Shown here: positions 42,630 through 42,704 of the stretch, piece after piece | Numbering within the stretch: position 1 is the first letter of the stretch | Layout of the letters: each line of letters starts with the position of its first letter | Source of the DNA: Escherichia coli | GTDB lineage: Bacteria > Pseudomonadota > Gammaproteobacteria > Enterobacterales > Enterobacteriaceae | NCBI RefSeq assembly: GCF_051903065.1 | Contig: NZ_CP178438.1 | Strand: one strand, 5' to 3' | DNA length: 64,000 nucleotides | Program-made: the position numbers and the translations under genes | Notes under the pieces: model-generated | Told to the model about the DNA's origin: nothing | What the model saw: only the letters and a program-made list of their open reading frames with translations | Database searches by the model: none

Positions 42630-42667
42630 GGATAATATTGCAGATCGTAAGAGTATGAGATGATCTT

Positions 42668-42704
42668 ACGTACTGTCAGAGCACTGATTTCTCTGACAGT
42701 ACGT
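42668..42704. terminator. Long perfect hairpin between convergent patD and yncL
   Basis: ACGTACTGTCAGAG-CACTGATTT-CTCTGACAGTACGT, 14-bp perfect stem. Confidence 0.6.

Follow-up and report, generated by a model that had tools for sequence, protein, structure and literature searches.

What does a long, perfect hairpin do between two convergent genes, and to which of the two does it belong? The question is raised by positions 42668-42704 of the window, the whole stretch of 64,000 nucleotides of Escherichia coli DNA analyzed here, where the inverted repeat ACGTACTGTCAGAG-CACTGATTT-CTCTGACAGTACGT lies between patD and yncL. An earlier note on this DNA had described a 14-bp perfect stem, had suggested that it could be a bidirectional terminator, a processing site, or a protein-binding palindrome, and had named folding energy, 3'-end mapping, and conservation as checks. 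The stem is confirmed: the arms, ACGTACTGTCAGAG at 42668-42681 and CTCTGACAGTACGT at 42691-42704, pair at 14/14 positions across a 9-nt loop (42682-42690). The gene context was correct as well. On the plus strand, the ORF and its annotation identify patD (41205..42629), which encodes gamma-aminobutyraldehyde dehydrogenase; on the minus strand, the ORF and the RefSeq annotation of the homologous locus identify yncL (42726..42821), which encodes a 31-aa small membrane protein. The hairpin is also the starting point of a 65-aa ORF (42660-42857, plus strand) antisense to yncL, with no evidence to set its conservation apart from that of yncL.

The hairpin is stable on both strands. Folded alone, it reaches -21.4 kcal/mol as plus-strand RNA and -22.2 kcal/mol as minus-strand RNA, and the surrounding 106 nt are more stable than dinucleotide shuffles, with z = -2.8 (plus) and -3.3 (minus). 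Among the three distinct perfect hairpins of at least 10 bp in the window it is the longest, and stems of at least 13 bp arose in 0/100 first-order Markov simulations, which places it beyond chance. The other two, at 715-744 and 7836-7865, are also perfect: one is a 12-bp hairpin, ACAAAAGGGAAA-GATGCA-TTTCCCTTTTGT, flanked by A and T runs, which looks like a bidirectional terminator, and the other is the 11-bp hairpin GATGTGGACTG-AATATCTA-CAGTCCACATC.

The element is also unique in the genome. No second copy was found in the window with up to 2 mismatches allowed, and an Rfam scan at a permissive E value returned only chance-level hits (E = 5.8 and 7), both short of the gathering threshold. In 5411/5426 complete E. 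coli genomes the hairpin occupies a single locus; BLAST gives a median of 2 places in each genome because the palindrome matches itself on both strands. The element is thus neither REP-like nor part of a repeat family. It resembles REP and BIME elements in being an extragenic palindrome able to block 3' exonucleases downstream of a gene, but differs from them in its single locus, in having no other copy in the window, and in matching no Rfam family.

A second, 7-bp inverted repeat lies just beside the main stem (42646..42670; CGTAAGA at 42646-42652 and TCTTACG at 42664-42670) and overlaps it by 3 nt. Both structures depend on the base at 42668, where the window carries a rare A found in 17/5412 E. 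coli records and K-12 and most other E. coli carry G. The A adds the 14th pair of the main stem, which is 13 bp long in K-12, and at the same time perfects the smaller repeat. The second repeat that the earlier note had reported thus exists in this strain, but it is not conserved: it is perfect only with the rare allele and is absent from an E. coli haplotype that carries a catB-like island beside the hairpin (see below). Since it also lies beyond the mapped yncL 3' end, we rejected a function for it, and the repeat is probably due to chance.

The sequence past the stem bears most directly on the idea of a terminator. The 12 nt that follow it are AAGATCATCTCA in minus-strand RNA and GCTGCGTGCAAA in plus-strand RNA. 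Neither includes a U/T tract, and on neither strand does the stem lead directly into the ~5 or more U in 8 nt that, after a GC-rich stem, mark a canonical intrinsic terminator. No A or T tracts flank the hairpin, and a consensus terminator scan called it on neither strand. Other lineages agree, with no more than 4 U in the 8 nt after the stem in 8/8 lineages examined. Because no U tract follows on either strand, the hairpin does not qualify as an intrinsic terminator, whether canonical or bidirectional. What follows is instead rich in C and poor in G: the first 50 nt past the stem on the minus strand contain 11 C and 4 G, C exceeds G over 40 nt past the stem in 8/8 lineages examined, and plus-strand RNA past the hairpin has a similar bias. 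On composition, the untranslated tract at 42618..42665 (minus strand) is a candidate rut-like Rho-loading region and presumably acts as a rut site.

Where does the RNA end? Published 3'-end maps come from K-12 rather than from the window strain, the two differing by one base at the stem end; adding 1,474,373 to a window coordinate gives the MG1655 coordinate. In the Term-seq data of Adams et al. 2021 (PMC7815308, Supplementary file 1), a strong minus-strand 3' end is mapped at 1517039, in three entries, once per condition, with 75,265 and 536,300 reads in two sheets; judging from sheet order, the larger value would belong to LB at OD 2.0. Projected onto the window, this mature 3' end of the yncL mRNA falls at 42666 (minus strand), at the base of the hairpin, 2 nt past the 14-bp stem found here and 3 nt past the 13-bp stem of K-12. 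It is the only 3' end of Adams et al. in a 500-bp neighborhood; a search of both strands of their tables over 1516700-1517199 found no plus-strand (patD) 3' end. An independent re-analysis, TRS 2023 (PMC10687069, Supplementary Data 2-4), gives a "Primary yncL" terminus at 1517034/35 (minus), 4-5 nt from the Adams end, and reports the same stem-loop at -21.6 kcal/mol. The TRS entries consulted for this locus list only minus-strand ends at the hairpin, a 66-nt 3' UTR, and 3'-UTR coverage that is ~5-fold that of the yncL CDS. Measured in the window from the stop codon to the mapped end, the yncL 3' UTR spans ~60 nt (42666..42725, minus strand).

Read-through past this end is sensitive to Rho. Adams et al. 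2021 (PMC7815308, Supplementary file 2) report a Rho termination region at 1516753 (minus) with a score of 16.6 and p = 5e-21; its peak corresponds to window position 42380 (minus), antisense within patD and 286 nt past the 3' end. Reads upstream and downstream numbered 220/9 without bicyclomycin and 106/72 with it, a 16.6-fold rise in the downstream-to-upstream ratio, computed on 800-nt windows and therefore coarse. Because bicyclomycin unleashes spurious antisense transcription, the additional downstream reads are not necessarily all yncL read-through. A weak sigma-70-like match, CTGACA-N16-CATACT (9/12; 42679-42652, minus), has its -35 element inside a hairpin arm and is directed into patD antisense; it is at chance level and could add to the antisense reads seen with bicyclomycin. 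ExcludonFinder (PMC12288877) places patD-yncL among convergent pairs with overlapping transcripts. The earlier note had held that read-through without 3' ends, together with a lack of conservation, would speak against the hairpin: read-through is present and Rho-sensitive, but a strong 3' end maps to the hairpin and the structure is conserved.

The hairpin thus shares with canonical and bidirectional intrinsic terminators a place in a convergent gap and an RNA 3' end just past the stem, but differs from them in lacking the downstream U tract and the upstream A tract, in being passed over by the terminator scan, and in its Rho-sensitive read-through. Two genuine terminators from related loci, at 3200-3223 of L098 (an Escherichia albertii-like locus) and at 173-198 of L003 (an E. 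coli island locus), served for comparison and differ from the yncL hairpin.

The distribution of the hairpin shows that it follows yncL. Within E. coli, it lies directly after patD in ~80% of genomes, including the window and K-12, whereas in ~20% of complete genomes a 1.3-kb AT-rich island separates it from patD and encodes a CatB-related O-acetyltransferase (L002-L004; 150-1510 in L003). The 13-bp stem is invariant in both haplotypes, but the loop is not (CAC to AGT). In 45 E. coli records, a rare allele cuts the stem to 10 bp and is uncompensated.

Beyond E. coli, yncL loci were collected by a PatD-based genome scan and by applying a degenerate yncL DNA pattern to metagenomes, which yielded four further groups. 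An Escherichia locus ~90% identical to the window (L006) has patD adjacent and a 15-bp stem with a compensatory change of U-A to C-G. In the E. albertii-like locus L098, the gene convergent to yncL is not patD but an invasin-like gene of >1,058 aa; the stem is 16 bp long (ATCCACAGTCAGAGAG / CTCTCTGACTGTGGAT) and carries several compensatory changes, and a canonical bidirectional terminator, with A tract, stem, and T tract, follows ~30 nt after the hairpin. Many Citrobacter genomes (L010) have an AraC-like gene in the convergent position and a stem of 10-12 bp, TGGCAGAGAG ... CTCTCTGCCA. In two Superficieibacter-like loci, a non-homologous GC-rich stem, AACGCCCGGC ... GCCGGGCGTT, stands at the same distance from the yncL stop codon (about 5010-5040 in L024 and about 4540-4570 in L091). 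These replacement hairpins also have no U tract, and A-T versus G-C compensatory differences distinguish the two loci.

The hairpin therefore lies ~20-35 nt past the yncL stop codon whichever gene converges on it: patD (the window, L006, and L091), the catB-like island gene (L002-L004), the invasin-like gene (L098), or the AraC-like gene (L010). Across lineages, loops range from 4 to 9 nt and stems from 10 to 16 bp, with pairing kept. Among 20 distinct sequences, both sides have changed in 8/16 pairs, and the covariation score of 0.227 compares with 0.100 for shuffles, 0/500 of which reach it, and with at most 0.13 for slid controls. G·U wobble pairs did not discriminate the strand under selection. 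The conservation check thus came out in favor of the hairpin, which is kept with compensatory changes in Escherichia and Citrobacter. The structure travels with yncL, not with patD, and it is the pairing that is conserved, not the sequence or the spacing. Because it follows yncL across differing convergent genes, the structure belongs to yncL rather than to patD, and we list it as a yncL 3'-UTR stem-loop (42668..42704, minus strand) on the basis of its sequence, its energy, its covariation, and its occurrence after yncL in every lineage.

A known class of bacterial 3' ends accounts for these features. Dar and Sorek 2018 (NAR, PMC6061677) showed that Rho-dependent transcripts end at steady state just past stable stem-loops that lack a U tract and are followed by sequence with C in excess over G, and that these stem-loops halt PNPase and RNase II after diffuse Rho termination. 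The yncL hairpin matches this class point by point, and we therefore conclude that it is probably a protective stem-loop that defines the 3' end of the yncL mRNA after Rho-dependent termination. The two are alike in having a stable 3'-UTR stem-loop with a precise 3' end immediately downstream (in the K-12 data), in the missing U-rich tract, in the excess of C over G downstream, and in bicyclomycin-sensitive read-through; dependence on PNPase and RNase II at yncL would follow from the likeness. Unlike the class as a whole, the yncL stem stands at the long, perfect end of the range and is a unique sequence, not a REP. The structure, the missing U tract, the 3' end on the minus strand, the Rho-sensitive read-through, and the linkage to yncL with covariation are all observed; we infer that exonuclease trimming generates the yncL 3' end and that the hairpin stabilizes the mRNA.

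The proposed course of events is as follows. With no U tract after the hairpin, RNA polymerase coming from yncL would run past it. Rho would then load on the untranslated C-rich, G-poor RNA beyond the hairpin and end transcription within a few hundred nucleotides, antisense to the 3' end of patD. PNPase and RNase II, both 3'-to-5' exonucleases, would trim the tail until the -22 kcal/mol stem blocks them; a sharply defined end would remain 2-3 nt beyond the stem, and the short, abundant yncL mRNA would be stabilized. Among the roles suggested in the earlier note, a processing site comes closest: an RNA 3' end is indeed defined here, although it is assigned to yncL and to the minus strand only.

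The same 3' end could instead arise by termination. A non-canonical intrinsic terminator, in which the hairpin, possibly aided by NusA or NusG, frees polymerase at the stem or just beyond it and Rho acts as a backstop for the read-through fraction, would fit the very abundant 3' end 2-3 nt past a very stable stem, and Term-seq cannot tell whether transcription stopped at the hairpin or the RNA was trimmed back that far. We nevertheless regard such a terminator as unlikely. Every lineage lacks a U tract after the stem, read-through is strongly bicyclomycin-sensitive, and patD and yncL have overlapping transcripts in ExcludonFinder. Moreover, the separate canonical terminator ~30 nt past the E. 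albertii-like hairpin suggests that the hairpin does not terminate alone.

The protective stem-loop may also do more than passively block exonucleases, as a regulatory 3'-UTR module or as a palindrome that serves patD and so leads to excludon coupling, a reading that we consider rather doubtful. As a module, it might offer an RNA chaperone a place to bind or give rise to a stable 3'-UTR fragment. Two observations could point this way: the ~5-fold 3'-UTR coverage in the TRS entries for yncL and the partnerships of the yncL mRNA (42666-42850 in the window, minus strand), which is reported in the literature as a RIL-seq/TRIC-seq partner of the sRNA RprA and as a RIL-seq partner of KilS. As for patD, a perfect palindrome folds equally well in patD read-through RNA, so a secondary protection of the patD mRNA may exist in this haplotype. 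In the K-12-type haplotype, which has no patD-proximal terminator, the palindrome may also serve the patD mRNA, and this would couple patD and yncL as an excludon.

Extending that role to a truly bidirectional element, one that ends or protects both the patD (plus) and the yncL (minus) mRNAs, is improbable. The hairpin does fold on both strands, at -21.4 and -22.2 kcal/mol, the plus-strand RNA past it is likewise C-rich and G-poor, and the terminator scan found no terminator-like site of patD's own in this haplotype, as opposed to one right after patD in the island haplotype. On the other hand, no plus-strand 3' end appears in the Adams tables, and the TRS entries consulted for the hairpin are all on the minus strand, although patD was possibly poorly expressed under those conditions. 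Moreover, ~20% of E. coli, the E. albertii-like locus, and Citrobacter all have the hairpin unlinked from patD, and it is without the arrangement of A and U tracts that true bidirectional terminators have. The bidirectional terminator of the earlier note is likewise not supported: neither strand has a U tract, the published maps show only a minus-strand 3' end, read-through downstream is bicyclomycin-sensitive, and patD is not adjacent in other haplotypes and species.

Cleavage by RNase III, either in the hairpin itself or in a patD-yncL sense-antisense duplex, is very unlikely. It would accord with the convergent excludon formed by patD and yncL (PMC12288877) and with the study of Stead et al. 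2011, which reports an altered yncL mRNA level in an RNase E or RNase III mutant. However, the 3' end was mapped outside the stem rather than inside it, and the 13- to 14-bp stem is shorter than typical substrates. Typical RNase III substrates span about two helical turns.

Least credible of all is a DNA palindrome bound by a dimeric protein (e.g., a LexA-like operator) or used as a recombination site by the neighboring insertions: the dyad is perfect, TACTGT ... ACAGTA resembles LexA half-sites, and three different insertions lie beside the hairpin in different lineages, but half-site sequence and spacing shift between lineages while pairing is kept, a wholly different hairpin takes its place in the two Superficieibacter-like loci, and the islands seen have no annotated or evident recombinase. 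The protein-binding palindrome of the earlier note is accordingly not supported, as loop length and stem sequence vary and pairing does not. A LexA box had also been considered as a candidate and was rejected: the spacer from CTGT to ACAG is 19 bp, not 8, and the corresponding half-sites in Citrobacter are CTGG ... CCAG.

The gap between patD and the hairpin of yncL varies in its own right. An imperfect 11-bp direct repeat (TAAACATTAAG / TAAATATTAAG) flanks the E. coli island, and window positions 42620-42640 represent the island-free form, with the patD stop codon within the single repeat copy. In island strains, the patD stop codon is followed 12 nt later by a terminator-like hairpin, TAGTGGC ... 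GCCACTA TCGTTTT, that has a T tract (L003 173-198, plus strand); since this patD-proximal terminator is missing from the window/K-12 haplotype, patD 3'-end formation probably differs between strains. Elsewhere, the gap holds an invasin/intimin-like gene in E. albertii-like genomes (L098 12-3188) and an MFS-like transporter and an AraC-like regulator in Citrobacter (L007 4270-4981; L010 4118-6128). E. coli and most, not all, Citrobacter sequences retain the motif ATTAAGGATAAT beside the hairpin. The gap as a whole has the look of a site that insertions have used repeatedly.

On the other side of yncL, a further structure lies upstream of ortT. At K-12 1517357 (plus), which is window position 42984, Adams et al. 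record a weak Term-seq 3' end of the "orphan" class; it sits within a GC hairpin followed by TTTT, in the region 42951-43000 (plus strand). The same region has a sub-threshold Rfam match to the Salmonella sRNA STnc320 (E = 5.8), and the terminator scan made a minus-strand call on the hairpin at 42988-42971. This hairpin could be an attenuator in the ortT leader or a small RNA.

The yncL hairpin is real and conserved but ordinary, an element of a known kind that is already visible in published supplementary tables, and the practical consequences are modest. For annotation, the yncL transcript should be drawn to end at the base of the hairpin, with a 3' UTR of ~60 nt, and the hairpin should not be labeled as an intrinsic or bidirectional terminator. 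The locus also makes a useful teaching example, in which covariation and structural replacement support a protective stem-loop that sets the 3' end of a Rho-terminated mRNA, and the element belongs to one of the smallest protein genes of E. coli. Beyond the hairpin, differences between strains may alter both the formation of the patD 3' end and the overlap of the patD and yncL transcripts.
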